A DNA stretch of 64,000 nt from Candidatus Aenigmatarchaeota archaeon (GTDB lineage Archaea; Aenigmatarchaeota; Aenigmatarchaeia; PWEA01; JACQIF01). A program made the position numbers and the translations under genes. Position 1 is the first letter of the stretch. Each line of letters begins with the position of its first letter. The notes beneath the pieces were generated by a model. The model made no database searches. It was given only the letters and a program-made list of their open reading frames with translations, and was not told the DNA's origin. Location: positions 672,001 through 736,000 of the forward strand of contig CP066684.1 of NCBI GenBank assembly GCA_016432325.1, in the 5' to 3' direction. This document shows positions 5,486-58,404 of this stretch, in pieces.

Positions 5486-5842
5486 ATGATGACATCCTGC
5501 GAAGTGGTCGTTCATTACGTCTTCCCTACCGTGCGTGCGCTTATCGCGCGGGAACTGATAGAGACGCACGGCCTGACGCAGCAGGAGGCCGCGAAGCGCA
5601 TGGGCCTCACGCAACCCGCGATCTCCCAATACAACAAGCAACTGCGAGGCTCCAGAGTAGCCGCGATAAAGAAGAACGACGAAGTGATGTCGAAGATAAC
5701 TGAAATCGCCTCTTTGCTGGCCAAGGGCGAGCTGGACGCAGAGCACGCGACGACGCGCTTCTGCGAAATCTGCGAAGAGGCGAAGAAGGGAGATTTTCTC
5801 GACAGCCTGGACGCCGACGTGAAGTACGCCCAGTGCGCCTAA
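5486..5842 (+). CDS. XRE-type HTH transcriptional regulator with Cys motif (COG2522-like)
   Basis: CEVVVHYVFPTVRALIAREL..GLTQQEAAKRMGLTQPAISQY..RG, C-terminal CEIC. Confidence 0.85.
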   Translation: MMTSCEVVVHYVFPTVRALIARELIETHGLTQQEAAKRMGLTQPAISQYNKQLRGSRVAAIKKNDEVMSKITEIASLLAKGELDAEHATTRFCEICEEAKKGDFLDSLDADVKYAQCA

Positions 5843-6747
5843 CCGTCAATCTTCAAACCAAACCGTTCGCGCCTTCTCAGGACGGGCACGGCCGCCAGTC
5901 CGGCAATATGCACGAGCAGCAGCGAACGCAGCGACTCAAGCGTGCCGAACACGACCAGCGGCGTCGCGTAGAGATACGTCGTTATGAGCCGTTCCAACGA
6001 ATCCGTGAGTCGCGGCTGCTCTGCCGTCGTCTCTTTCAGCAAGGCGCGATAGTCCGTGAGGAACTGCTGTTTTTGTTCGTCTGAAAGCGCGTCATAACGC
6101 TCGCGGACGCTCGGAGCCATCAGCGCGACGACCTGTTCGTCTGTCAGGTCCTCGGAGAAGACGCTCTGCGAGCCCTTCTGAATCTCCGCCGACGCAAGCG
6201 CTTCGTAGTCGTCGATGTTCGCCGCCACCATCGCGAGCGACGCGGCGGCTATGAATACGTTCAGAACGATGAGCCCGCGCCCCACCGCGTGCGAAACGCC
6301 CTTGTAGTTTTTCCACTTGGTTTCTTTTCTGTACGCGTCGACCACGGAGCCGTGAACGAAATAAGCGGACGCCGCGGCGCCGGCGGCGACAATTATTGTT
6401 TCGTAGCTTAGACCGACGAGCGCAACGCCAACCAACGAACCGACGGCTACCGCGGCCATCCCCGTGGTCCTGTCGGTCGGAGCGATGAGCCCGTAGACGG
6501 CCACAGCGGCGAGCGCGAGGGAAAGGAAGACGAACGGGACAGCCATCACGAGAAGCATCGATATGGCGCTGACAGCGAGCGCAGGCAAGCTAGGCCCTGT
6601 CGATGAAAGCAGGCCTCCCTGAAGGGATATCGGAACTATCGCGGCCGCCTTTGTCGAAACCGAGAGGAATTTGAAGAGCCAGAACGCAACCGTTGTGAGA
6701 AGGGCTGCAAGGACTGCGACAGAGATGCGTTCCTGTTTCATCGTCAC
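5839..6747 (-). CDS. Multi-pass membrane protein
   Basis: Several hydrophobic segments; start overlaps stop of the upstream surface-protein gene. Confidence 0.7.
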   Translation of the reverse strand: MTMKQERISVAVLAALLTTVAFWLFKFLSVSTKAAAIVPISLQGGLLSSTGPSLPALAVSAISMLLVMAVPFVFLSLALAAVAVYGLIAPTDRTTGMAAVAVGSLVGVALVGLSYETIIVAAGAAASAYFVHGSVVDAYRKETKWKNYKGVSHAVGRGLIVLNVFIAAASLAMVAANIDDYEALASAEIQKGSQSVFSEDLTDEQVVALMAPSVRERYDALSDEQKQQFLTDYRALLKETTAEQPRLTDSLERLITTYLYATPLVVFGTLESLRSLLLVHIAGLAAVPVLRRRERFGLKIDG

Positions 6748-9700
6748 GCCTGTCCACCCTGGGGAACGTTGAATGTCACGCCTGTCTTCTTCTTGGGCAG
6801 CTTCTGCTTTATCTTTTCGACGAGCGCCTTGAGTCTCTGCTTCGCGCGCTCTAAGGGCGAGCCTCCGTCAGGCGGACCGTACGTGAATCCTCCGACAGTC
6901 GTGGCCTGTTTCGCCGGCGGCAGGAACATATAGACAACGAGTCCTCCGACGGCCACGGCAACGACTATTCCCGCTATGAGCAACAGCGAAGTTCCTGAGG
7001 CAGGCACGGCCTCGGCCAGCTGCAAGTGAAGTTTGCTAAGCAATTCATCGGCTTCGGCGAGCAACGCGTTCGCCTCTATGTAATCGCCGCTTGCTATAGC
7101 CTCGCCGGCGAGTCTCATCTTCTCCTTGAGCTCGGCGAGCGTGGCGTTCGCTTCGGTGAGGTTGTAACCGCGCTTCGAGAGGTCGTTGATTCTGGTCTCA
7201 ACGGTCGTTATGTTCTGCAGCTTCGCCGCGTAGGTCGCCTCTATCTTCGCCTTGGTCTCGTTGGACGGCTGCACGGTGAGCGTCGCGGTCACGGAACCTT
7301 CGTTGTCTGCGTTCGACGCCTTGTATGTTATGGCGTGTTCTCCTATCGCGGCGTCTGCCGGTATCGCGTATGAAACCGCAAACGTCACGGTCTCGTCGGC
7401 CAGAATGTCAACACTCTCCGGATCCACGCCGAACCATGACGCGTCGACGCCTTCAACGGCCAACTCGACTCCGCTCTGCGTCGTGTCTCCGGTGTTCTTC
7501 ACGCCGATGTCCACGCTCTTGTTGCCGCCTTGAACGATTTCAACGTCTGCCGGATAGGACGCTATGTCAAGAACGTCCTCTTCTGCCGTCTCCTCTGCCG
7601 CGGCTTCGTCTGCCGTCGTGTCGCTTGACGAGTCGCTGCTACTGCTGCTGGAGCTCGACGAGGAGCTGTCCGCGTCTGTTATCGTCAGGCTTATCGACAG
7701 GTCGCCGTAATCCGCGGCCTCGCCTGTCGCGCTGATGGTGAGCGTGGCGGACGTCGAGGATGTCACGTTGTTCGGATCCAGCTTGAAGGCCAGCCTGCAT
7801 ACTTCCGTGCCGTCGGGGTCTATGCTGTTGGCCGCGGTGACGGACTCCAGGCGGAAGCCGTTGCCCACCTTGGTGCCGTCTGTGCACGCCGTGCTGTTCT
7901 CGGCGTCCGGAGTTATCACGAGGTTTGAGTTCGTGCTGATATTGATGAACCCGCCGGGAGCAAAGGTTCCTAAGTTGCGGACCGAGAAGTTGAAGTAGGC
8001 GACGCTGTTGTCCGCGACCGTCACGGACGTGGAGTCTATGGCGACGAAGTAGAGGCCTGAATTGTTCACCCGGATAGTCGAGTTGGTACCGTTGCCTTTC
8101 AGAGTCGTGCCGAGACGGACGTCTGACGCGCCTACGAACACGCTATAGTAGCCTCCTGGTCTCGCCGAGTCCGGAGGCAGCGTGGCGTTGAACTCGTAGC
8201 GCCCGTTCTGGAGCAGGGGCACGTCATCGGTGGACGTTATGCTCTCGTTGGTGACGTTGAGCGTACCTGAGCTGGGGTAGCGGGTCGACGTGTTGCCCTC
8301 GAAGATGTAGACCGTGAAGTTGCCCGTGGCGTTTATCATGTCTGTTATCTCGGTGCCGTTTTTGTAGAAGACCTCGGCCGCCACCGTTATGTTGTTTGTC
8401 TGCGTGACGTTCTCGATTTCGTTGTTGCCCACGTGCAGCGCGTCCCTCACGCGCACGTCTATCTCGCTGGTGAGGTTGACGCGCACCGTCAGGTTGAATG
8501 TCTGGTAGGGGCGCGCTCCGGTGTCGTTTAGCGTTACCCATCCGACGTAGAGGCCCTCGGTGTTGAGGGTTTCGAGTGTGTCGGCCGTTATTGTAAGGTT
8601 GAGGTTGCTGCCCGTGTTTGCGGACAACGTACCTGTCGGGTCTGTTGTAGAGAAGTCAAGGAACTTCGACGAGTTGCTGGTCAGGTTCAGGCCGGTCGAA
8701 TTGGCGCGGGCGTCGAACGTCAGGTCTGCGTTGCCAGTGTTGTTCACGGATATGTTCAGCAGTATGGAGCCTAGGCCTGTCCTGTTGACTCCGATGTTGT
8801 CCGTGATTGTAATCGTGGAGCGGTTGTACGTGCTGTTCACCATCAGCTCCGCAGTCACGACCGTGGAGTTGAGCGGTATGTCGTGTATGGCGCCGGACAA
8901 CGACGTGTAGCGCAGCCTTCCCCCGACCTCGCCGCTCAGAGTGTCGTTCTGCGCCGTCAGGTTTATCTGGTGGGTTCCGTAGTTATTGGTCAGGCCTGTC
9001 TGGTTGAACGTGCGCGTCGTGTAGTTTGACATTATCCACGCCGAGGCGTTAATGAAAAGTTTTGCCGTGACGTTGTAGAGAACGGGGCCTGCCGTATTGT
9101 TCGCGACCTCCACTGTCCACGTGCCGTCGTCGTCAAAGCCTATCGTTGCGCCGGACGGCGTAAAGGTAACGAACTCCTCTGAAACGGAGCCGGTCTTGTT
9201 CGACAGGTGGGATTTGTTGGAAGACGTTCCGACGAGCGTGCCGTCGGGTTTGATGAGTCTCAGCGTGTAGTTGACGCCTCCCGTCCAGTTGAGGCGCGCG
9301 TCAATCTTGGTTACGAAATCGGGGACGCGCAGCGTGAAGTTCTGCGCCCCTGTGGGCGCGTTGCTGGAGAAGCGCTGCATGAGGTACAGCTCGCTGGCCT
9401 CCGTGACGTTTGTCTGGTTGATGGAGCCCGTGTTGGTGAGCACGATGTTTACGGTATGCCTTTCGGACGGCGCAAGACCGGTGAAGTTTATCCTGTTGAG
9501 CGTGGCGGACGTGGAAGCGTTGGTCGCATTGAGCGTGCCGTATATGAGAAATCCTCCGGGTCCCTGATAGTCAATCTGGCTGGTCGTGTTGTTGCCATAG
9601 ACGCGCACGTTGAACATCCTGGCGGCCTGAGGGTACATGAACGTCAGTGTCTCTGAAAGGTTGCGGCCTGAGGAGCCGGTGAGAAACACGTTGTTCTCAT

Positions 9701-10430
9701 CGAAAAGGAAAAGGTCGACGTCGTTGGTGTGGCCGGCCCATGTAATATTGACGGTCACGGACGTGGCGTTGACGATGGCGCTCGTGTTGAAGTAGTACCT
9801 GTGGTCCTCGCTCTCGTTGATGTCGAGCTTGCCGCGGAACTGGCCCACGCCGTTCGTCGCTCCTGACGTGCTGAGGCTGTTGTTGGCGTCGATAGGAATG
9901 TCCATAATCACCGTTATGTTCGCGTAGTGCGTCGCGTTGGTGGAGTTCGTGACGTTGAGCAGGCCGTAGTACCGCCCCGGAGGACATGCCCTTGCGGCCG
10001 AGAAGAGGACCGTCAGGTTCTCGTTGGCTGTCGTGAGGGGGATCGTTATGTTCGTGCGCACGTCTGTGCCGTTCTTGACGAAGAGGGGCGTCTGGGCGCC
10101 TGTGCTGCCGCAGCTGGCGGAGCCGTAGCCCGACGTGCCCGTGGCCCAGTCGTTCTCTGTGCCCGGCTGCGTGTAGTTTCTCAGAACCGTGTGCGTGTTG
10201 TTTATCACGGCCGCTATAAGCGCTGGTATGGCCGTATCGTTGCGCCATATCGTGATGTTGGCTTCGTATTGCCTGCCTGTGTCGGCCGTTGTCCAGTTGA
10301 GGCGTATCGTGTCCTGCGTGACGTTGAACTGAGCCGGAACCGGGAGGCTGTACACAACGGCTTCGGCGACAGAGGCCGCAAGCAGGCCAGCAAGTATTAC
10401 AGCGGCGACCAAAGCCAGTTTACGGTCCAT
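6744..10430 (-). CDS. Large secreted, membrane-anchored surface glycoprotein (S-layer/adhesin-like, Ig-like domains)
   Basis: Signal peptide, very dense N-x-S/T sequons, poly-Ser linker, CARDB/NPCBM-like VKNTGD segment, coiled coil, C-terminal TM helix. Confidence 0.8.
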   Translation of the reverse strand: MDRKLALVAAVILAGLLAASVAEAVVYSLPVPAQFNVTQDTIRLNWTTADTGRQYEANITIWRNDTAIPALIAAVINNTHTVLRNYTQPGTENDWATGTSGYGSASCGSTGAQTPLFVKNGTDVRTNITIPLTTANENLTVLFSAARACPPGRYYGLLNVTNSTNATHYANITVIMDIPIDANNSLSTSGATNGVGQFRGKLDINESEDHRYYFNTSAIVNATSVTVNITWAGHTNDVDLFLFDENNVFLTGSSGRNLSETLTFMYPQAARMFNVRVYGNNTTSQIDYQGPGGFLIYGTLNATNASTSATLNRINFTGLAPSERHTVNIVLTNTGSINQTNVTEASELYLMQRFSSNAPTGAQNFTLRVPDFVTKIDARLNWTGGVNYTLRLIKPDGTLVGTSSNKSHLSNKTGSVSEEFVTFTPSGATIGFDDDGTWTVEVANNTAGPVLYNVTAKLFINASAWIMSNYTTRTFNQTGLTNNYGTHQINLTAQNDTLSGEVGGRLRYTSLSGAIHDIPLNSTVVTAELMVNSTYNRSTITITDNIGVNRTGLGSILLNISVNNTGNADLTFDARANSTGLNLTSNSSKFLDFSTTDPTGTLSANTGSNLNLTITADTLETLNTEGLYVGWVTLNDTGARPYQTFNLTVRVNLTSEIDVRVRDALHVGNNEIENVTQTNNITVAAEVFYKNGTEITDMINATGNFTVYIFEGNTSTRYPSSGTLNVTNESITSTDDVPLLQNGRYEFNATLPPDSARPGGYYSVFVGASDVRLGTTLKGNGTNSTIRVNNSGLYFVAIDSTSVTVADNSVAYFNFSVRNLGTFAPGGFINISTNSNLVITPDAENSTACTDGTKVGNGFRLESVTAANSIDPDGTEVCRLAFKLDPNNVTSSTSATLTISATGEAADYGDLSISLTITDADSSSSSSSSSSSDSSSDTTADEAAAEETAEEDVLDIASYPADVEIVQGGNKSVDIGVKNTGDTTQSGVELAVEGVDASWFGVDPESVDILADETVTFAVSYAIPADAAIGEHAITYKASNADNEGSVTATLTVQPSNETKAKIEATYAAKLQNITTVETRINDLSKRGYNLTEANATLAELKEKMRLAGEAIASGDYIEANALLAEADELLSKLHLQLAEAVPASGTSLLLIAGIVVAVAVGGLVVYMFLPPAKQATTVGGFTYGPPDGGSPLERAKQRLKALVEKIKQKLPKKKTGVTFNVPQGGQA

Positions 10431-10510
10431 CCAAGCCCCTCACGTGCCTGATACTTGGACGCGCCATATAAATCTTCGGAGCTGAGGAGGCGCGCTGTCA
10501 TTAAAGGCTT

Positions 10511-11008
10511 TCAGCATATATTCTGGCCCTTTTCCTCCAGAACGGCCTTGCTTATCATGAACGGAACGTCCGCGCGCAGCGCAATCGCCAGCGCGTCGCT
10601 GGGCCTCGAATCCAGACGAAGCACAGTGTCTCCGGAACGCAGGACGAGTTCCGCGTAGTATATGTCATTCCCGAACCTCGTCATCGCCGCCTCTTCGACG
10701 GTGATGTTGAAGCTGCTCAGCGTCTCCGCGTAGAGGTCGTGTGTGGTCGGCCTCAGTTCAACGGTCTTCTCCTTGCCCAGCCTTATCGAACGGGCCTGGT
10801 CCGGCGTCGTGTCGGCCACGATGGCCGTGCAGTCGCGGCCGATTATGAGCGTCGTTCCCTGTATATCGATGACGTTCGCCTCGACGAACTCCGGTCCTCC
10901 GAAGAGTCCTGCATATTCTGCGGCGGCTGTGGCGGCCAGAAGGAGCAGCGTAAGTATCAGGAGTTTTACGACAAAGGGCATCTGCCTGCGCGGGGCGCGG
11001 TGCTTCAT
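10511..11008 (-). CDS. Bifunctional nuclease (DUF151) family with N-terminal TM helix
   Basis: RPTTHDL, YYAEL, LDSRPSDALAIALR. Confidence 0.8.
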   Translation of the reverse strand: MKHRAPRRQMPFVVKLLILTLLLLAATAAAEYAGLFGGPEFVEANVIDIQGTTLIIGRDCTAIVADTTPDQARSIRLGKEKTVELRPTTHDLYAETLSSFNITVEEAAMTRFGNDIYYAELVLRSGDTVLRLDSRPSDALAIALRADVPFMISKAVLEEKGQNIC

Positions 11009-11122
11009 ACGGCCGATTGTTCCGGCCGGTATAAAAAGGATGTTGGCGCCCCCGGTGATGCACACTTTTTAAGAAAAAGTGTGGGCAAAAAACGACGTCC
11101 GTGCGACCTAAGATATAGAGGT

Positions 11123-11232
11123 TGGCGCCCCCGGTGGGATTCGAACCCACGACCCCTTGCTTAGGAGGCTTGCACGCCTTGAACCGAGATCCAAAAACAA
11201 AGTGCTCTGAATCCAAACTGAGCTACGAGGGC
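11123..11232 (-). tRNA. tRNA-Arg(CCT) with 30-nt intron at 29/30 (11170-11199)
   Basis: Acceptor GCCCTCG/CGGGGGC, encoded CCA; anticodon stem CTT^GC/GCAAG restored on intron removal; BHB helix GCAC/GTGC. Confidence 0.9.
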
Positions 11233-11285
11233 ACTGTCCGAATTAACGAGAAGGTTTATTTAACTCTTCCTTCCGGGATATTCGC

Positions 11286-11648
11286 ATGCAAACCCTCGAT
11301 GGCGACGCCCTGAAACAGGACGACGCTATGAGGCTCAGCGGCGACGTGGAACTCAGGTTCGTCCATTACAACGAGCTGCAAGGCCTGCGGGATTTCAACG
11401 GGCGGCTGAGGGAGCTTTCGCTGCGCATGTATTTCCCCGTCTTCAAGAAGTCGGGCGACGGCCGCACATTCTTCGACCCGGCGCTGGTCAAGCCCGATGG
11501 CCTGACAGGGGAAGATTTCAGCTACTACGAAAGCGGGCGCCTGCGCGCGACGTGGCATGAGTGCGACGACTCCGAGGGAATGGGCGGTTGGGTCTCGTTC
11601 TACCTGAGCGCCGAAGAGGTCAGGACGCTTGCAAAGGAAGCGGCCTAG
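11286..11648 (+). CDS. Hypothetical protein
   Basis: 120-aa ORF, typical codon usage, upstream TTTATTTAA. Confidence 0.55.
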   Translation: MQTLDGDALKQDDAMRLSGDVELRFVHYNELQGLRDFNGRLRELSLRMYFPVFKKSGDGRTFFDPALVKPDGLTGEDFSYYESGRLRATWHECDDSEGMGGWVSFYLSAEEVRTLAKEAA

Positions 11649-13462
11649 ACGAAGACCTTTACCTCTTTACTCGTCGCCAACGCGTTCACCAGCTTCTTGC
11701 CGAGGTCCGAGTCCTTGGACAGGCGTATCTGCGACGTCTTCCCAACGGTCGCCGTGAACAGGTACTCGTCGGCGATGTACGTATTCGCGTTCTTGCCGCG
11801 CATCTTGTCCTCGAAGAAGAGCACGATGTACGCGCCCGTTTCATCGACCTCGAACGGCACCTGCTTGCCCAGCGTTTCGACCTTGGGCTGCACGTCTATG
11901 GAAACGCCGAGCTTGCGTTCTATCTCCGAGATGTTCTTGCCGGCTTTCCCGATGAGGCGTGGAATCATCTCGTTCTTCACCTTCACAACTACGCGCGTGT
12001 CGCTGATGAACTCCACCTTCATTCCGGGATCGAATTCGCGCAGCGCGTCGCGTATGCGTTCCGCGGCCAGCTTCTTCAGGGGGTCGTCGCGCTCTTCTGT
12101 CACGGGGATAACGACGTTCTCCTCGCCGAAGGTGTAGATTTCGTACTCAAGGTTCGCGGTCTCGAAGTCGCGTATCTCCACGACAGGACGGGCCAGGTCC
12201 TGCTCCGTCATTCCGGTGGGAACGCGGACCTTCATGTCTATCGAATAGACCTTGGCGACGGTCCCGTCCTTGACGTACACGATGGTGTCGAGGATGTGCG
12301 GTATCATGCCGAGCTCCGTCCGTCCGATGAAGCGCTGTATGGCGTCCACGGGCTTCGTCGCGTGCACGACTCCGACCATGCCGACTCCCGCGAGGCGCAT
12401 GTCCGCAAATACGCGGAAGTCCGCCGTCTTGCGAATCTCGTCGTATATCGTGTAGTCCGGTCGCACCAACAGCAGGATGTCCGCGGTGTTCGCCATGTTG
12501 CCGTTCAGGGGACCGTACTGCGTCACCTCCGCAGGGACGCGCAGGTCCCGCGGAGACTCCATGGTCTTGATTATCTTGTCCTGTTTCAGGTAGAACTCCG
12601 CGAGGCTTTGGACAAACGTGGACTTGCCGGAGCCGGGCGGCCCCGATATGAGGATTCCTTCCGCGTGTTCGCGCAGGCGCGCTATCAGTTTTTCAGTCGG
12701 CTTGTAGTCCTCAAGCGTCAGCTTCACGAGCGGCCGTACGACCGTAATCTCGTAGTCGCGGGAGAACGGCGGTTTCGTGATCGCGATGCGGTACTCTCCT
12801 ATCTGTATCACTTCGGCGCCGGTCATCGTTATCTCGAACTGGGCGTCGTCGCGGTGGCGCGCCACGTAGACGATGTTCTCGGCCATCTGCTCGAGTTCCG
12901 CGCGCGTGAGCGCGTCGCGGCGCAGTTTCACAAGCGTCACGTGACCGGGTTTGCCGTGCTTGGCCTGCGGAACGGCCCCTTCCTTCAGGTGCAGGGACAT
13001 CGTCTCCTTATCCAGGAGATCCTCGAAAAGAAGCTTGTACTTCTCCTCTGTCGGCGCCACGTAAAAGACGTTGAGGCCATCGGCCTGCGCGACTTCGGAC
13101 TGCACGAGATCCGCGGTATAAAGCGTCGCGTTGAACTCCTTGGCCGCGTCGCGTATGAGCGCGTCTATGCGGCCCTTCTTCGCTAGCTTTATCTCCTCGG
13201 CCGTCGGGCGGCGTCCGGTCGTCGTTATCTTCAGGCCTTTCGCGTCCGCCAGTTCGCGGAGCTTCTTTATCTCCCTGAGGCCGTCGAAACCTATTTCCAA
13301 GCCGCGGTTGGCCTGCGACTGAAGTTCGTCCAGAACCATCTCCGGAATCACGATTTCAACGTCGCGGAGGTCTCCTGCGTCTATCATCTCGGACAGCTTG
13401 CCGTCTATTATTATGCTCGTGTCCGGGACGATACGTTTGACTGATTCGTTGTTCTCTTTCAT
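11645..13462 (-). CDS. PIN-domain ATPase with KH domain (PINA, Holliday junction branch migration)
   Basis: N-terminal PIN (VPDTSIIIDG), Walker A GPPGSGKST, YDEIR, C-terminal KH LIGKAGKNI. Confidence 0.9.
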   Translation of the reverse strand: MKENNESVKRIVPDTSIIIDGKLSEMIDAGDLRDVEIVIPEMVLDELQSQANRGLEIGFDGLREIKKLRELADAKGLKITTTGRRPTAEEIKLAKKGRIDALIRDAAKEFNATLYTADLVQSEVAQADGLNVFYVAPTEEKYKLLFEDLLDKETMSLHLKEGAVPQAKHGKPGHVTLVKLRRDALTRAELEQMAENIVYVARHRDDAQFEITMTGAEVIQIGEYRIAITKPPFSRDYEITVVRPLVKLTLEDYKPTEKLIARLREHAEGILISGPPGSGKSTFVQSLAEFYLKQDKIIKTMESPRDLRVPAEVTQYGPLNGNMANTADILLLVRPDYTIYDEIRKTADFRVFADMRLAGVGMVGVVHATKPVDAIQRFIGRTELGMIPHILDTIVYVKDGTVAKVYSIDMKVRVPTGMTEQDLARPVVEIRDFETANLEYEIYTFGEENVVIPVTEERDDPLKKLAAERIRDALREFDPGMKVEFISDTRVVVKVKNEMIPRLIGKAGKNISEIERKLGVSIDVQPKVETLGKQVPFEVDETGAYIVLFFEDKMRGKNANTYIADEYLFTATVGKTSQIRLSKDSDLGKKLVNALATSKEVKVFV

Positions 13463-52781: not shown

Positions 52782-54074
52782 ATGGACTTCATGTCTGTGA
52801 GAGAGGCCATGGAACAGGAAGGCGGAACGGCCGCGCTGCGCGGCTGGTGCTCTACCGTGCGCACGCAGAAGACCACGGTTTTCATAATCCTGCGCGACGG
52901 AACCGGCCACATACAGGTCACGTTCAAAGAAAGCGACACGGACGCCAAGACGTTCAAGGCCGCGTCAGAACTTACGACCGAATCATCCGTAACGCTTACA
53001 GGCACGGTCGCAAAGGACGCACGCGCGCCCGGCGGCTTCGAGGTCAAGGGGCGCACGCTTGACGTTGTGCAACTGGCCGAACCATATCCCATCGCCCGCG
53101 ACAAGTCCCCGGAGTTCCTCATGGATCAGCGGCATTTGTGGATTCGTTCGCCGCAGATGACTGCGATACTGCGCGTGCGCTCGACGGTCTTCGGAGCCAT
53201 ACACGAATACTTCCGCTCGCAGAATTATTTTGAATTCCAGTCTCCTACGTTAACGAAGGCCGCTTGCGAGGGAGGTCCGACACTCTTCAAGGTCGACTAC
53301 TTCGGAGACGAAGTTTTCTTAACGCAGTCGTGGCAGCTCTATGCGGAAGCAGGGATTCACGCTCTTGAGAAGATTTACTGCATTGCTCCTTCGTTCCGCG
53401 CGGAGAAGTCGCGCACGACGCGCCATCTCACAGAGTACTGGCACGCGGAGTGCGAGGCAGCGTGGATGGACTTGGACGGACTGGCGCGCGTGGCGGAAGG
53501 ATTGATTTCGCACATCTGCGCACGCGTCGCGGAGAAGAACCCTGAAGACTTGCGCACTCTCGGACGCGACCCCAACGATTTGCTCAAGATAACGCCTCCG
53601 TTCCCACGCATCACGTACACCGAAGCGCTTGACATGCTGGCGAAGAAAGACGGCATCAAAATCAAGTGGGGCAAAGACCTCCGTACGGAAGAAGAGCGCG
53701 CGATTGCGCAGCATTTCGAACGTCCTGTCATAGTGACGCGCTATCCCAAGGAGATAATGGCCTTCTACAAGCCCGCGGATCCAAAGGATCCCAAGGTCGC
53801 TCTATGTTTCGACGTGCTCTGCCCTGAGCTCGGAACAGAAATAATCGGCGGCTCGCAGAGGGACGCGGACGTGAAGGCCATGATAAAGGCGTTGAAGAAA
53901 GAAGGCGCTGACCCGAAGTTCTATGACTGGTATTTTGCGACGCGACGTTACGGCGGCGTGCCTCACTCGGGCTTCGGCATGGGAGTGGAGCGCGTCATCC
54001 AGTGGATATGCAAGCTGGAGCACATCCGCGACACGATACCGTTCCCGAGAATGATGAATCGGTATTATCCTTGA
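52782..54074 (+). CDS. asnS: Asparaginyl-tRNA synthetase
   Basis: LTQSWQLYAE, FRAEKSRTTRHLTEYW, EIIGGSQR, WY..RRYGGVPHSGFGMGVER (AsnRS-type, not AspRS-type). Confidence 0.88.
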   Translation: MDFMSVREAMEQEGGTAALRGWCSTVRTQKTTVFIILRDGTGHIQVTFKESDTDAKTFKAASELTTESSVTLTGTVAKDARAPGGFEVKGRTLDVVQLAEPYPIARDKSPEFLMDQRHLWIRSPQMTAILRVRSTVFGAIHEYFRSQNYFEFQSPTLTKAACEGGPTLFKVDYFGDEVFLTQSWQLYAEAGIHALEKIYCIAPSFRAEKSRTTRHLTEYWHAECEAAWMDLDGLARVAEGLISHICARVAEKNPEDLRTLGRDPNDLLKITPPFPRITYTEALDMLAKKDGIKIKWGKDLRTEEERAIAQHFERPVIVTRYPKEIMAFYKPADPKDPKVALCFDVLCPELGTEIIGGSQRDADVKAMIKALKKEGADPKFYDWYFATRRYGGVPHSGFGMGVERVIQWICKLEHIRDTIPFPRMMNRYYP

Positions 54075-54690
54075 GGCTCATGACAATCCCTTCGACTTCT
54101 TTCATTACGTCTTCCGTCTTCGCGCGCTGTTGTAGCTCGTAAATCCCATTCAACACGCCTTCCACGACGAGTTGTTCTAGTGTAGCGCCTCCTCGACGCA
54201 TCCTCTTTGCGTGTTCCGCATAGCCCATTGCGAAACTGACGTCCAACAGTATGTCATAAAGGCTGTTTTTACCATCATTGAAACCGTTTACGTGCCGCGT
54301 CCATTTTATCCGTGCACAACACCGCAACCAACAAGACATTCTTTCGTTGTATGTTATGCATGCGCCTGTCGCCGCCTTTGCCACACGCGATATCTTATCC
54401 GGAACTGTTTTATCGCCCAATACAATATGATTTTCTGATAGGATATTTTCAATCGCATAGTCCCTCAACATCACGGCCTTCTGAAAGTTGTGCGGTGTCA
54501 GGAACATCACGTCCACCCATTTCCCCGTCTGAGCCTCGATTTTCCTTAGCACGTGGTGTGCTCCCTCCAGGGAGCCTACGTACACCACGTCAACATCTCC
54601 GGCATCCGCGCCCTTCCGCAGGTACGAGCCGTATATTATCACAAACTCGCCTTGCGGCACTTCCAAATCCAGTTCCCGAATCGCTAACAT
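53995..54690 (-). CDS. Pol beta-like nucleotidyltransferase domain plus helical C-terminal domain
   Basis: IIYGSYLR..GDVDVVYV..VDV; 3' end overlaps asnS by 80 bp. Confidence 0.7.
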   Translation of the reverse strand: MLAIRELDLEVPQGEFVIIYGSYLRKGADAGDVDVVYVGSLEGAHHVLRKIEAQTGKWVDVMFLTPHNFQKAVMLRDYAIENILSENHIVLGDKTVPDKISRVAKAATGACITYNERMSCWLRCCARIKWTRHVNGFNDGKNSLYDILLDVSFAMGYAEHAKRMRRGGATLEQLVVEGVLNGIYELQQRAKTEDVMKEVEGIVMSLKDNTDSSFSGTVSCRGCAPACISTG

Positions 54691-54740
54691 TCTCTCGCCT
54701 CTTATTGGTGCGCAGGGTCTGCAGCCCCGGCGCGTTCGTT

Positions 54741-54920
54741 TTATCCTAGCCTGAATCCGTCCCTGTACGGGACGAGTTTCCCCGAGGGACTTACGTGCGA
54801 AATGTCCACGTGCGGATACGGGTGGCCTCTCGACGAATGGATGTCGCTTATGACGGCCACGCTGCCGAACTCATTTAGGTATCCAAGTCGCATTTCCCTC
54901 ATCGATGTCGGTACACTCAT
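54741..54920 (-). CDS. 59-aa peptide (not in ORF track)
   Basis: GAGGTGA SD; MSVPTSMREMRLGYLNEFGSVAVISDIHSSRGHPYPHVDISHVSPSGKLVPYRDGFRLG. Confidence 0.6.
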   Translation of the reverse strand: MSVPTSMREMRLGYLNEFGSVAVISDIHSSRGHPYPHVDISHVSPSGKLVPYRDGFRLG

Positions 54921-54951
54921 GTCTTCACCTCTTTGTTTTTTGTTCGTCGTT

Positions 54952-55095
54952 TCATCTCAGTCCACGCAACGCGTAGCTCTGTTCCAACGCGCTCATGTAC
55001 AGCCCGGGTGGCTGCATCAGGTCGCTGGGCAGCGTGCCGCCGTACGGTATCGCGCTGTAGTGGCCCGGTCCGATCACTGGTCCTTGTCCGCTCAT
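54952..55095 (-). CDS. 47-aa Gly/Pro/Tyr-rich peptide (not in ORF track)
   Basis: GGAGGTGA SD; MSGQGPVIGPGHYSAIPYGGTLPSDLMQPPGLYMSALEQSYALRGLR. Confidence 0.6.
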   Translation of the reverse strand: MSGQGPVIGPGHYSAIPYGGTLPSDLMQPPGLYMSALEQSYALRGLR

Positions 55096-55132
55096 CGTTT
55101 TCACCTCCGTTGAACTTTTGTCGCGATGACAC

Positions 55133-55243
55133 TCATCGTCCCTTGTACTGTTTCATGCCGGCCTGACAGTTGGGACAGCACGGGTCAAACCCCGGCGGTC
55201 CGGGACAGTACTCGGCCGACAATCTACTTGCGTACGTTTCCAT
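55133..55243 (-). CDS. 36-aa Cys-rich peptide
   Basis: METYASRLSAEYCPGPPGFDPCCPNCQAGMKQYKGR; ATG 5 nt after the upstream stop. Confidence 0.5.
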   Translation of the reverse strand: METYASRLSAEYCPGPPGFDPCCPNCQAGMKQYKGR

Positions 55244-55248
55244 CACTC

Positions 55249-55437
55249 CTACCGCCCTCCGACGAGTTTCGCGTGCCCTTCGTACGCCGGGTTTCCGGCC
55301 AGCACGTCTCCCATTCTCTGTATGTACGCCCTGTCCGTCGACCAGTCCCAGCTCTGCGCCCACTTCTTTCTCTTCGCCGGCGCGCCTGGAATGAAGTACG
55401 ACGGGCTTTCTTCATCCGTTCCCAATTCGTTCACCAT
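55249..55437 (-). CDS. 62-aa peptide
   Basis: GGAGGTG SD; MVNELGTDEESPSYFIPGAPAKRKKWAQSWDWSTDRAYIQRMGDVLAGNPAYEGHAKLVGGR. Confidence 0.6.
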   Translation of the reverse strand: MVNELGTDEESPSYFIPGAPAKRKKWAQSWDWSTDRAYIQRMGDVLAGNPAYEGHAKLVGGR

Positions 55438-55643
55438 TTCCAAACACCTCCTTTGTTTTTTTGTCGCGTTCTTTGGTCCTGCGTTGTCCGCAGGGTTGGA
55501 ACCCAATTGATTAGCGCCACCATAAAAAACAGTCGTGTTACAGCTAACTGAAAGGATAAATAGTTGTACGGTTAACTAATTATAACGAAAAACGTTAACC
55601 CAAACGGGAGCGCTATATAAGGTTAATCTGTGGTGTATGAAGA

Positions 55644-56426
55644 ATGGACAAGGAGATAACACAGATTGTGTTTTTGGGTAATCCATACCATATGGAGAGG
55701 ATAAGATACCTTCTAAGAAAACGCATTCCGCAAAAGGTCTACTTCATAGAGGCCGAGGAGAACAATCACAGGGAGGAAGCCAAGGAGATGGCAGAAAAGA
55801 TGCGCTCCGAGCTTGAGGGGAATCTGCCGCGATGGGTGGTGGAAAAATCGGAGTTCACCGCTGTACCATTTTTTGACTTCACATCCGCTTTCATGAAACT
55901 AATCTCTATCATGCACAACGAGATTAGGCAAGACAGAGACGTTCTTGTCAACGCCCACGGCGGCAGCGTGATAGTCACTACAGCAGCCCTCTTGGCAGCT
56001 AACGCTACCGGAGCAAAGGTATGCTGGGTTGAGCCCGAGAGCTGGGGGTTTGTAGAAATGGGAGGCCACGTTTCACATATGGCCAAAGGAGCCAAGGGCA
56101 TCAAGGAGGTGGCGATTCCAATAAGCCTTGGAGTACCTGAGGGAGTGGACGCCAGCGTCCTCGGACATATCTACAGCAGAGGAGGAACCGTTAAGGGCAG
56201 ACTGTCCGCCATAACGGAGGACGTGGGCCTAGACAAGCTCGGCGCGAACGTGAAGAAGTCCAGCTCGGGCGTCGTGAAGCTCTCGAAGACCCTCGGCCGC
56301 CTCCGTGCGAAAGGCCTCATAGAGACGCGCAAGCTTGGCAGGAAATCCTTCGAAATCAAGCTCACCAAAGACAAGGGAGAGGTCGTGGGGAAGGTAGTGA
56401 GTCTGGTGTTAGAGAAAAGCATTTGA
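55644..56426 (+). CDS. CARF-like (DUF6293/Csa3-like) plus wHTH transcriptional regulator
   Basis: IVFLG..ERI..KVYFI, FFDFTSAF, VLVNAHGGS..AALLA, WVEPE; C-terminal LGRLRAKGLIETRKLGRK. Confidence 0.75.
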   Translation: MDKEITQIVFLGNPYHMERIRYLLRKRIPQKVYFIEAEENNHREEAKEMAEKMRSELEGNLPRWVVEKSEFTAVPFFDFTSAFMKLISIMHNEIRQDRDVLVNAHGGSVIVTTAALLAANATGAKVCWVEPESWGFVEMGGHVSHMAKGAKGIKEVAIPISLGVPEGVDASVLGHIYSRGGTVKGRLSAITEDVGLDKLGANVKKSSSGVVKLSKTLGRLRAKGLIETRKLGRKSFEIKLTKDKGEVVGKVVSLVLEKSI

Positions 56427-56430
56427 AGCT

Positions 56431-57843
56431 ATGCGCCTCAACGTTACCGTGTCTTATCAGGAACATTTAAAGAAGCTAAGGGAGCATCTGAGCAAAGAGA
56501 ATATCCCCTTCGCCGACCAATTAGACGCCGTCTATGCCGAGATGGCAGAAATCGATAAAAAACTGCAGATGTCTTACCCGCGGCCCGACGCCCTCATCCT
56601 TTGCGGAGGCAACGGAACCAGATTTGCGGAAGGCAAGAAACCAAAGGTCCTCGCCGAGGTCAATGGAAGAATCCCATTGGAGTATACAATCGACACGCTC
56701 GCAAAACTCAACTTCGACAAAGCCTTCATATCCGTTGGAGGCCCTCACGGAGACTCCATTAATGCCCACCTGAAAGAGATGGAGGCAAAACCAATCGGGC
56801 TGCTTGGACTAACGTCGAGGCCAACAATCATCGAATCCGTAGATTACGGCAGACTCATGTCACACCTACACCACATATCGAAGGCCAACGGGAAGCTGAT
56901 TGAAAACGGGTGCGAGCCGCTCAATCCAAACCTATTTGACAACGAACTAGACACGATTGTCGGGGTTGCGGCAGTTGCGTACACCGCCGCGACTCAACCG
57001 CCCCTTACAGTCGTGCTCGGCGATTCTATCTACCAAGAAGATGCCATATCATGGGCGTCAGGGTACTATACAATCGAGGCAAACATGGGCTTGACGGAGA
57101 TGATGCCTGGCACACGGGGAATATCGCCACGATTTCCATACATAAAGCCGCTCGTCCATGTTATGGAGAATTCAACAGAGGCGTATAAGGCGCCAGTCCC
57201 CAAGATTCATAAATTATTCTCCGTTCGCAAAGGCCCCCTTTCCTTTGATATCGGGCGTGCCGTTGGGTTCACCGAACACAGGACAAAACGAGTTGCCATA
57301 TCGGTTGTAAGCCCATTGCCCTTCGACTACAGGATTATCTTCAGAGATAACGACGATCCAGCTGGACGCTCTCTCCCCCTCACCGAGGACGGGTCCCGAA
57401 TAGACATGGAGAAGATCGCGTTACCGGGGATTTCTTACGGAGGATTCCTTTCGCACCTGAAAGAGGTCCAGTCCATATTCCCGCCGCTGGAAACAGGAAG
57501 TCGCCAGAAGCCTGCGCGCCTGCCACCATCGGACGCTACGCTCGAGCTTGCCGAGGCTACCTCGTCGCTGCTTGTGATGAGAACAAACTTCAAGTACTTC
57601 GACATCGACGACGAGGAGACGCTTGCCGCGGCCAACGACGTTGACATAAAGGAATTTATCGCCAACGATCCACTAAGCATCCTGGAGAAGTCGACGCCCG
57701 GATACAGAAAACAGTTTCTGGAAAAGCTTAACGAGGCCAGACACCGCCACCAACATACGTTCCGTGCTACAACTGGGGGACTCGGGAACTTTAAAGACCT
57801 CTATCAGTATGCGCTACGTGCATTTCGTAGACACACCGGATAG
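56431..57843 (+). CDS. Divergent NTP-transferase (nucleotide-diphospho-sugar transferase fold)
   Basis: ALILCGGNGTRF..KPKVLAEVNG.PLEY, VVLGD, FDIDDEETL; long insertions. Confidence 0.75.
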   Translation: MRLNVTVSYQEHLKKLREHLSKENIPFADQLDAVYAEMAEIDKKLQMSYPRPDALILCGGNGTRFAEGKKPKVLAEVNGRIPLEYTIDTLAKLNFDKAFISVGGPHGDSINAHLKEMEAKPIGLLGLTSRPTIIESVDYGRLMSHLHHISKANGKLIENGCEPLNPNLFDNELDTIVGVAAVAYTAATQPPLTVVLGDSIYQEDAISWASGYYTIEANMGLTEMMPGTRGISPRFPYIKPLVHVMENSTEAYKAPVPKIHKLFSVRKGPLSFDIGRAVGFTEHRTKRVAISVVSPLPFDYRIIFRDNDDPAGRSLPLTEDGSRIDMEKIALPGISYGGFLSHLKEVQSIFPPLETGSRQKPARLPPSDATLELAEATSSLLVMRTNFKYFDIDDEETLAAANDVDIKEFIANDPLSILEKSTPGYRKQFLEKLNEARHRHQHTFRATTGGLGNFKDLYQYALRAFRRHTG

Positions 57844-58026: not shown

Positions 58027-58135
58027 GCTCCGGTAGTTCAATTGGCAGAATGCTACGCTGTTAAACACTCCGCTCAAAGGGGCGGGTGCAAGCGGAGACG
58101 TAGAGACGGAGGTTCGAGTCCTCCCTGGAGCGCCA
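58027..58135 (+). tRNA. tRNA-Asn(GTT) with canonical 37/38 intron (58064-58097)
   Basis: GCTCCGG/CTGGAGC acceptor, CTACG/CGTAG anticodon stem, GGAGG-TTCGAGT-CCTCC, CCA; BHB helix CTGT/GCGG. Confidence 0.9.
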
Positions 58136-58146
58136 TTGTGATAACC

Positions 58147-58404
58147 ATGGACATCGAAGAAGCGAAGAAGACCGCGAGGATAGCGAGGCTCGCGCTGAGC
58201 GAAGCCGAGCTCAGGAAGCTCGCCAAAGACGCGGATGAGATACTTGAGTGGGCCGAGCAGCTTGAGAGCGTGAAGAGCGAAACGGAAAAACGCGAGAGCG
58301 GCGCATTACGAGACGATCTGCCACAACACTTCGAGCCGCAAACGATAACTAAAAACTTCCCGCAGAAGAGCGGGTCGCATCTGAAGGTGCCGCGCTCGTT
58401 ATGA
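58147..58404 (+). CDS. gatC: Asp/Glu-tRNA amidotransferase subunit C
   Basis: ARIARLAL..ILEW.EQL..LRDD..KVPR; precedes gatA. Confidence 0.85.
   Translation: MDIEEAKKTARIARLALSEAELRKLAKDADEILEWAEQLESVKSETEKRESGALRDDLPQHFEPQTITKNFPQKSGSHLKVPRSL

Follow-up and report, generated by a model that had tools for sequence, protein, structure and literature searches.

The DNA analysed here (the window) is a stretch of 64,000 nucleotides (nt) from Candidatus Aenigmatarchaeota archaeon, contig CP066684.1, corresponding to positions 672001–736000 of a genome that consists of a single contig of 874,869 bases and is 90% complete. Between an asnS-type gene and the gene of tRNA-Asn(GTT) it carries an island of two divergent units, of which the right one, taken together with the promoter gap (55510–57843 in window coordinates), is read as an autoregulated, ligand-gated operon, in which a CARF regulator would control both itself and a variable X-1-phosphate nucleotidylyltransferase, the leftward operon being a strain-specific accessory; this reading is given a probability of roughly 0.55. 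The unit includes two plus-strand genes, encoding a CARF/winged-helix regulator of 260 amino acids (aa) (CARF260; 55644–56426) and a nucleoside triphosphate (NTP) transferase of 470 aa (NTPt470; 56431–57843), the latter starting 4 nt past the stop codon of the former.

Profile searches, structure prediction and fold search agreed on the nature of CARF260, for which the original prediction had proposed a CARF-like/winged-helix architecture. The protein matched the Pfam family HFX_2341_N with 44 bits (cut-off 30; E = 3.6e-11) and, over its full length (residues 7–246), the PADLOC profile CARF3 (E = 1.6e-13); its match to DUF6293_C was weak (0.021), yet most of its close homologues have a precomputed annotation of this domain. 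The AlphaFold2 model, built from an alignment of 12 homologues, reached a mean predicted local distance difference test score (pLDDT) of 91 and a predicted template-modelling score of 0.83, and its best Foldseek neighbours in the PDB were all CARF proteins, namely SSO1393, Sis0811, Csa3 with cyclic tetra-adenylate (cA4), Cam1, Can2, Csm6 and Card1, with Csa3 and SSO1393 aligning across both the CARF and the winged-helix domain. The recognition helix of the latter (S208-x-x-V-K-L-S-K215) was invariant in 13 sequences and represents the most conserved block of the family, while H105 and S108 in the loop after strand 4 were nearly invariant. Judged by family and modelled fold, CARF260 is a true CARF plus winged-helix regulator of the DUF6293/HFX_2341 ("CARF3") branch. 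Neither a CRISPR-like array (k-mer scan) nor a match to Cas10/Csm1 (TIGR02578; Cmr2 was not searched separately) was found in the genome, and CARF260 is therefore regarded as a CRISPR-independent CARF protein. Proteins with HFX_2341_N are present in 52 of the 371 genomes of the phylum, and the nearest homologues are labelled Aenigmatarchaeota and Woesearchaeota, which together with intron-bearing tRNAs and TATA-type promoters gives the genome an archaeal look. There are three regulator paralogues in the genome (41–43% identical), which group together in the maximum-likelihood tree with 85/93 support; the third of them (genome positions 495607–496401) has no NTP-transferase beside it and is a solitary gene flanked by two polyprenyl synthase genes.

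The 137-nt gap between the two units proved to be unique in the genome with respect to the GTTAAC-like dyads that the original prediction had pointed out there. Its operator-rich part (55543–55627, unstranded) holds four TTAAC-type dyads, GCTAAC (55543–55548), GGTTAAC (55570–55576), ACGTTAAC (55592–55599) and GGTTAAT (55621–55627), among which lies a TATATAA box (55614–55620), shortly upstream of the CARF260 start codon at 55644, an ATG that is probably leaderless. Genome-wide, GTTAAC is about 2.6-fold rarer than expected (61 observed vs 161) and AACGTT more common (295 observed vs 161 expected), a deficit and an excess which may be the trace of restriction-modification pressure. Apart from the CARF260 promoter gap, no place in the 874,869 bases holds a GTTAAC pair within 60 nt, and no other 100-nt window reaches four relaxed sites. 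The motif also recurs in front of related regulators: in 11 non-redundant upstream regions of the regulator clade, ACGTTA was found 14 times against 0.83 expected and AACGTTAA seven times against 0.11 expected, ATTAAC was present in all 11, and a CTAACGTTAG-like palindrome (the AACGTTAA/CTAACGTTAG motif) lay at -49 to -55 relative to the start codon of CARF260 and of the regulators in four of the related loci (L018, L020, L022 and L026). The dyad cluster is thus real, unique in the genome, conserved in related promoters and beyond chance. Because a conserved DNA site goes together with a conserved recognition helix, the regulator would be expected to bind these dyads and so to regulate its own gene; the cluster spans both divergent promoters.

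NTPt470 was correctly anticipated to be a highly diverged NTP-transferase. Its match to NTP_transf_3 (32.8 bits, cut-off 27; E = 9.5e-8) covers only some 50 residues, and an alignment with 14 CARF-linked relatives showed G60, R64, K72 and D198 to be invariant in all 15 sequences. These residues belong to the GxGxR nucleotide loop and the PK lysine (LCGGNGTRF...KPKVL) and to the LGD motif with the metal-binding aspartate (D198 in VLGDSIY), and the closing motif YFDIDD (389–394) aligns with D(I/L/V)N(D/S) of the homologues. The sister protein from locus L026 matched PF00483 from end to end (positions 2–239 of 245). The sequence includes an N-terminal extension of 48 residues and large insertions at approximately 137–188 and 215–380. 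The AlphaFold2 model was poor (pLDDT 47) and confident only at residues 50–120 and 190–210, and Foldseek with this model gave template-modelling scores of 0.16–0.30, which support only the nucleotide-binding core; the best matches to that core were inositol-1-phosphate cytidylyltransferase, MurU, RmlA, UGPase, GlmU and CobY. A near-length homologue search returned only NTPt470 itself, and an exhaustive HMMER search with both enzyme paralogues of the genome against 1.84 billion representatives produced a single other full-length relative of NTPt470, the 409-aa paralogue from the same genome, and elsewhere only matches to the N-terminal 70 residues. By its motifs, NTPt470 is a diverged X-1-phosphate nucleotidylyltransferase of the predicted GT-A fold with intact catalytic motifs, and, since the catalytic residues are invariant, it is probably active; its acceptor-binding half, as far as the sequence comparison goes, is unlike anything described.

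The linkage of the two genes was examined in 12 related loci from metagenome-assembled genomes and metagenomes, whose regulators are 35–49% identical. In nine of them (L020–L024 and L026–L029) an NTP-transferase of the NTPt470 kind directly adjoins the regulator on the same strand, at distances from an overlap to 44 nt; in L025 the two genes are convergent, and in the remaining two (L018 and L019) no NTP-transferase neighbours the regulator. The enzyme-linked regulators formed a clade with 100/100 support in the maximum-likelihood tree, and no NTP-transferase neighbour was present at any of 29 more distant HFX_2341_N loci, which makes the linkage with the enzyme a defining trait of this regulator clade. 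A pairing of this consistency is beyond chance. The expectation that the genes of the island co-occur elsewhere was consequently upheld for the CARF/NTP-transferase pair, in contrast to the peptides and the pol-beta gene of the left unit, which were found at none of the 12 loci. The genome itself holds a second pair at genome positions 530471–532525, with the regulator at 531725–532525 on the minus strand and the 409-aa enzyme paralogue 24 nt downstream; this enzyme is 26% identical to NTPt470 over 392 aa. Because the two enzymes are each other's only full-length relatives, the pair has probably been duplicated as a unit.

Comparison of closely related loci revealed a sharp difference in the conservation of the two genes: while L020 and L021 are 95.5% identical across the promoter and the CARF gene, near the stop codon of the latter this similarity is lost, to return at 96% past the enzyme region, and the enzymes in between are only 38% identical at the protein level. 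The differing stretch corresponds to 8752–11100 in L020 and to 8752–9962 in L021, the former also including a gene with a phosphoribosyltransferase (PRTase) domain. The same pattern of break and resumption was observed in L026/L027 and in L022/L028; by these alignments, near-identical strains exchange the enzyme gene in the manner of a cassette. Two loci carry tandem series of three to five diverged paralogues of the NTP-transferase, together with a NUDIX hydrolase, directly after the regulator: five paralogues and the NUDIX gene follow it in L027 (8756–15970), and a similar operon is present in L024 (6789–9653).

Put together, these observations suggest the following model. A CRISPR-independent, one-component CARF plus winged-helix regulator would bind palindromes of the TTAAC/AACGTTAA type that surround the TATA box of its own promoter, thereby controlling its own expression and that of a highly variable X-1-phosphate nucleotidylyltransferase translated together with it. 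The enzyme would make a metabolite linked to a nucleoside diphosphate (NDP), most likely an NDP-sugar or a similar precursor of a variable cell-surface glycan, and the CARF pocket would sense a nucleotide-type ligand, either the product, its precursor or, possibly, a general nucleotide signal, and so tune the operon; the leftward operon shares the divergent promoter and may be co-regulated. A surface-glycan precursor fits best because of the cassette turnover, the tandem arrays and the secreted or S-layer-like genes nearby in related loci; the identities of the ligand and of the substrate and the glycan role are inferred. The original prediction of a nucleotide-signalling module is fair for the right half of the island, in the sense of a nucleotide-linked ligand and enzyme, and was not sustained for all seven genes as a single module.

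Several points weigh against this model. The substrate-binding half of NTPt470 is not modelled at a pLDDT of 47, which leaves "sugar" as a guess, and the genome has other, canonical NTP-transferases, making the CARF-linked copies extras. L023 and L028 encode GlmS in the vicinity of the pair, though outside the operon. A DAC-domain cyclic di-AMP synthase is present in the genome (genome positions 137330–137704), so that the ligand may be unrelated to the adjoining enzyme; with this synthase and the NUDIX domains of the 875-kb genome, nine matches above the Pfam cut-off and 11 in all, a general nucleotide signal is conceivable. In the promoters of the two paralogous regulators of the same genome the motif is present only as weaker variants of the ATTAAC type, and the conserved pair goes back to a single association in an ancestor, which means that the compared loci are not independent events. 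Finally, the island DNA is present in four public groundwater metagenome runs, all of them from one study, which is possibly its source; all four are DNA and none RNA, and they are identical across the island and hence carry no information on polymorphism or selection.

The leftward unit was recovered as originally predicted, with four open reading frames (ORFs) of 36–62 aa followed by a pol-beta-type nucleotidyltransferase gene, all on the minus strand: pep62 (55249–55437; 62 codons), pep36 (55133–55243; 36 codons, four cysteines, starting 5 nt past the pep62 stop), pep47 (54952–55095; 47 codons, or 50 aa if GTG at 55104 is the start), pep59 (54741–54920; 59 codons) and NTase231 (53995–54690; 231 aa). 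Near-consensus Shine-Dalgarno sequences precede three of the small ORFs, namely GGAGGTG 7 nt before the ATG of pep62 and 6 nt before that of pep47, and AGAGGTGA 5 nt before that of pep59; in the whole genome, both strands counted, GGAGGTG has just 66 occurrences. The weakest of the four is pep36, a poor candidate by every measure, with an unfavourable Shine-Dalgarno spacing as read from the sequence. The 24-nt leader of pep62 is repeated before pep47 (repeat family D1, 83%), and the predicted mutual unrelatedness of the peptides was confirmed, this mRNA leader being all that is repeated; a hairpin in the leftward 5' leader was not significant (z = -0.31). Codon scores were 0.134 for pep62, 0.045 for pep47, -0.045 (borderline) for pep59 and -0.257 for pep36, which is the best among the overlapping frames, yet at the low edge of real genes, and NTase231 scored similarly low. 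The GC content at third codon positions (GC3) exceeded the overall GC content in all four small ORFs, and the purine content of the sense strand of pep62 was 0.656. The peptides are only suggestive of something beyond chance, and these features would be consistent with translation of the unit and, through the shared operator-rich promoter, with its co-regulation.

No relatives came to light that could tie the left unit to the conserved pair. The exact sequences of pep62, pep47 and pep59 are present in NCBI nr as called proteins and form singleton or self-only clusters in a collection of 15 billion proteins, as does NTase231, while the exact sequence of pep36 is absent from it; neither a search for pep62 in the 371 genomes of the phylum, which produced no credible homologue, nor tblastn of the peptides against the genome they come from rose above noise. 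None of the five ORFs is located beside any of the 12 related CARF regulators, the PHROGs and plasmid-collection searches produced no match, nor did Pfam, NCBIfam or PADLOC for the peptides, and a genome of the same genus has a hydrolase and a transporter gene after asnS in place of the unit. The GC content of the area is mosaic (0.48–0.61); of the marks of an integrated element, neither an integrase nor flanking direct repeats nor a duplicated piece of a tRNA was found. On this comparative evidence the left unit is a strain-specific accessory outside the conserved module, either co-regulated cargo or decaying DNA. Some leads on individual ORFs were not confirmed: the Atlas features of pep59 resemble those of relaxase fragments (0.91, 178 shared features), and a six-frame search of the genome with PF03432 was negative at E <= 10; its "ISDIH" string is reminiscent of metallophosphoesterases, which no Pfam match supported; and two other genomic clusters of small ORFs led by Shine-Dalgarno sites were not comparable arrays.

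NTase231 consists of a pol-beta domain (residues ~1–107) and a helical C-terminal half. Its sequence, as read directly, conforms to the catalytic pattern hG[GS]-x9-13-Dh[DE]h in the form YGS-x9-DVDVV (YGSYLRKGADAGDVDVVYV / IIYGSYLRKGADAGDVDVVYV), the Pfam matches were weak (DNA_pol_B_palm 0.025; Polbeta 0.058, 14 bits vs a cut-off of 26.9), as was that to PADLOC PDC-M05A (1.5e-6), and Atlas features and structure placed residues 1–107 with the Polbeta/NTP_transf_2 clusters (0.90). The only full-length match in a search of 5.8 billion clusters was the protein itself. The nearest relatives of the domain in the phylum, themselves weak, are HTH-MNT proteins encoded beside HEPN genes (L039, L040, L042, L043 and L046). 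The C-terminal half was compared by hhalign with the HEPN partners of these remote relatives and rejected as a HEPN domain (probability 0.3%); Pfam detected nothing in it at E <= 5, and no HEPN ORF adjoins the gene. NTase231 and asnS are convergent, with their 3' ends overlapping by 80 nt (53995–54074). The final 26 residues of NTase231, encoded antisense to asnS, are of low complexity, an arrangement that points to a loss of the gene's original end and to a secondary junction.

Two alternatives concern the function of the pair and of the left unit, respectively. The pair could be a dedicated signalling or conflict system that diversifies in an arms race with viruses or hosts, in which the enzyme product is itself the CARF ligand, a messenger made independently of Cas10, NUDIX resets the signal and the operon of micro-ORFs and NTase231 is the regulated output. 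This is considered rather unlikely, and its more specific form, a recognition or conflict module of small-genome symbiotic archaea with a strain-specific messenger read by CARF and NUDIX as the off-switch in the related loci, still less probable. The survival of a tight operon linkage through extreme enzyme divergence, the exchange of the enzyme between near-identical strains and the tandem arrays with NUDIX are all as such a system would have them, and so are an operator cluster covering both divergent promoters and a genome in which no CRISPR array or Cas10/Csm1 was found. The same cassette behaviour is, however, seen in surface-glycan loci, GT-A NTP-transferases are metabolic enzymes, and we know of none that makes a second messenger. 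Furthermore, no effector (nuclease, pore or protease) is conserved beside the pair, and PADLOC had no match for the enzyme. Also in favour of this reading, what the DUF6293 family binds is still being asked in the literature (PMC11434293).

For the left unit, it had been suggested that the pol-beta enzyme nucleotidylates the four peptides in the manner of ribosomally synthesized and post-translationally modified peptides (RiPPs), or that the unit is a toxin-antitoxin/defence cassette. The tight, operon-style packing of the ORFs with strong Shine-Dalgarno sites before three of them, the mRNA leader common to pep62 and pep47, the intact pol-beta motif, the weak PDC-M05A match and the remote relatives that form HTH-MNT/HEPN toxin-antitoxin pairs lend this some appeal, which did not survive closer inspection: the mutually unrelated peptides share no leader peptide, no maturase, recognition element, protease or exporter was recognisable in the locus with Pfam, NCBIfam, PADLOC and PHROGs, NTase231 has neither a HEPN partner nor, at an hhalign probability of 0.3%, a HEPN domain, the peptides all lack the hydrophobic character of type I toxins, and no co-occurrence of the left-unit genes was found elsewhere. 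Both versions are accordingly very improbable. Decay is easier to entertain, although it too is doubtful: the unit would be the remnant of an integrated element beside a tRNA gene, with the micro-ORFs as fragments or young orphans lacking a selected function and NTase231 truncated. All five ORFs are orphans with codon scores at the low edge, the GC content is mosaic, the end of NTase231 runs antisense into asnS, other genes follow asnS in the genome of the same genus, the site lies beside tRNA-Asn and pep59 has relaxase-like language-model features. This relaxase lead, however, failed the test with the hidden Markov model, searches of PHROGs and plasmids were negative, no integrase, flanking direct repeats or duplicated tRNA fragment was found, and three consecutive near-consensus Shine-Dalgarno sites with ATG starts, along with the raised GC3 of all four small ORFs, favour maintained translation. 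The autoregulated operon with a strain-specific accessory unit is preferred here.

The island is bounded on the left by asnS (52782–54074, plus strand), a class IIb aminoacyl-tRNA synthetase gene identified by tRNA-synt_2 (E = 1.9e-73) and an OB anticodon domain, for which asnS is an assumed label, and on the right by tRNA-Asn(GTT) (58027–58135, plus strand; Rfam RF00005, 55 bits), which contains a 34-nt intron. This tRNA escapes ARAGORN at default settings and was found only with the intron option. It is overlapped by a TTG-started gatC ORF (58042–58404), and the true gatC start must hence be an internal ATG (MDIEEAKK...) just past the tRNA. Related CARF loci also adjoin aminoacyl-tRNA synthetase genes: L019 has ORFs like those of LysRS and AspRS/AsnRS (5528–7036 and 8785–10098, read by eye), and in L024 a Pfam-confirmed PheRS beta gene lies beside the CARF locus (9666–12850), comparable with asnS and gatCAB in the present one. 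This adjacency is probably an effect of gene density in small genomes.

To our knowledge, CARF domains have been described almost exclusively as sensors of cyclic oligoadenylates made by Cas10. The DUF6293/HFX_2341 branch is widespread in archaea, and the CARF260 locus offers three directly testable handles on it: a putative source of the ligand, a DNA site that is already defined, and proteins that are small, soluble and suitable for expression. It points, moreover, to a hypervariable region for nucleotide or glycan precursors in small-genome archaea, whose surface variation is thought to matter for contact with hosts and viruses. The peptide half brings a caution, since micro-ORFs may be well formed and have strong ribosome-binding sites and yet be orphans private to one strain. 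What ligand the DUF6293/HFX_2341 regulators bind has been explicitly asked (PMC11434293), and a Cas10-independent signalling pair, if true, would name its long-sought type. The regulator family and the enzyme superfamily are already known; no description of their fixed pairing, of the cassette behaviour or of the operator was found in the literature searched.

Among known systems, the HEPN-MNT toxin-antitoxin pairs share with NTase231 the MNT-type G-S...D-x-D motif; in contrast to them, NTase231 has no HEPN gene or domain but a helical tail of its own (125 residues) and, instead of a toxin, four micro-ORFs upstream. NTPt470 has the GxGxR, the PK lysine, the LGD aspartate and the F-D-I-D motif in common with RmlA, GalU/UGPase, the GlmU N-domain, MurU, inositol-1-phosphate cytidylyltransferase and CobY, and differs from these GT-A enzymes in its length of 470 aa, its N-terminal extension and the two insertions that apparently replace the usual acceptor-binding subdomain.

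For Csa3 and the Crn1-type proteins the ligand is cyclic tetra-adenylate from Cas10, which they bind or cleave, and the genes they regulate are cas genes. With CARF260 they have in common a glycine-rich loop after strand 4 (N-x-H-G-G-S in CARF260) and a dimeric, ligand-gated design, which for CARF260 is predicted. Csa3 of the Sulfolobales (PDB 2wte, 6wxq and 6w11) and the Crn1-type ring nucleases SSO1393 and Sis0811 were its best structural matches, over both domains (Foldseek E ~2e-7), although the identity is only 12–16% and the NCBIfam Csa3 model scored 20.9 bits against a cut-off of 60.2; moreover, they work with the Cas10 signal, while the genome of CARF260 had no CRISPR array and no Csm1 found in it. 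The closest counterpart by family is HFX_2341 of Haloferax mediterranei (DUF6293; PF19810 and PF22665), with the same Pfam N-terminal family, a CARF-like plus winged-helix architecture and no CRISPR link. It was characterized experimentally as a transcriptional repressor with an unknown ligand (PMC11434293). However, HFX_2341 is a global regulator of 308 aa without a reported enzyme partner, while CARF260 belongs to a separate clade, so far confined to small-genome archaea, which is locked to an NTP-transferase cassette and has a TTAAC-type operator.

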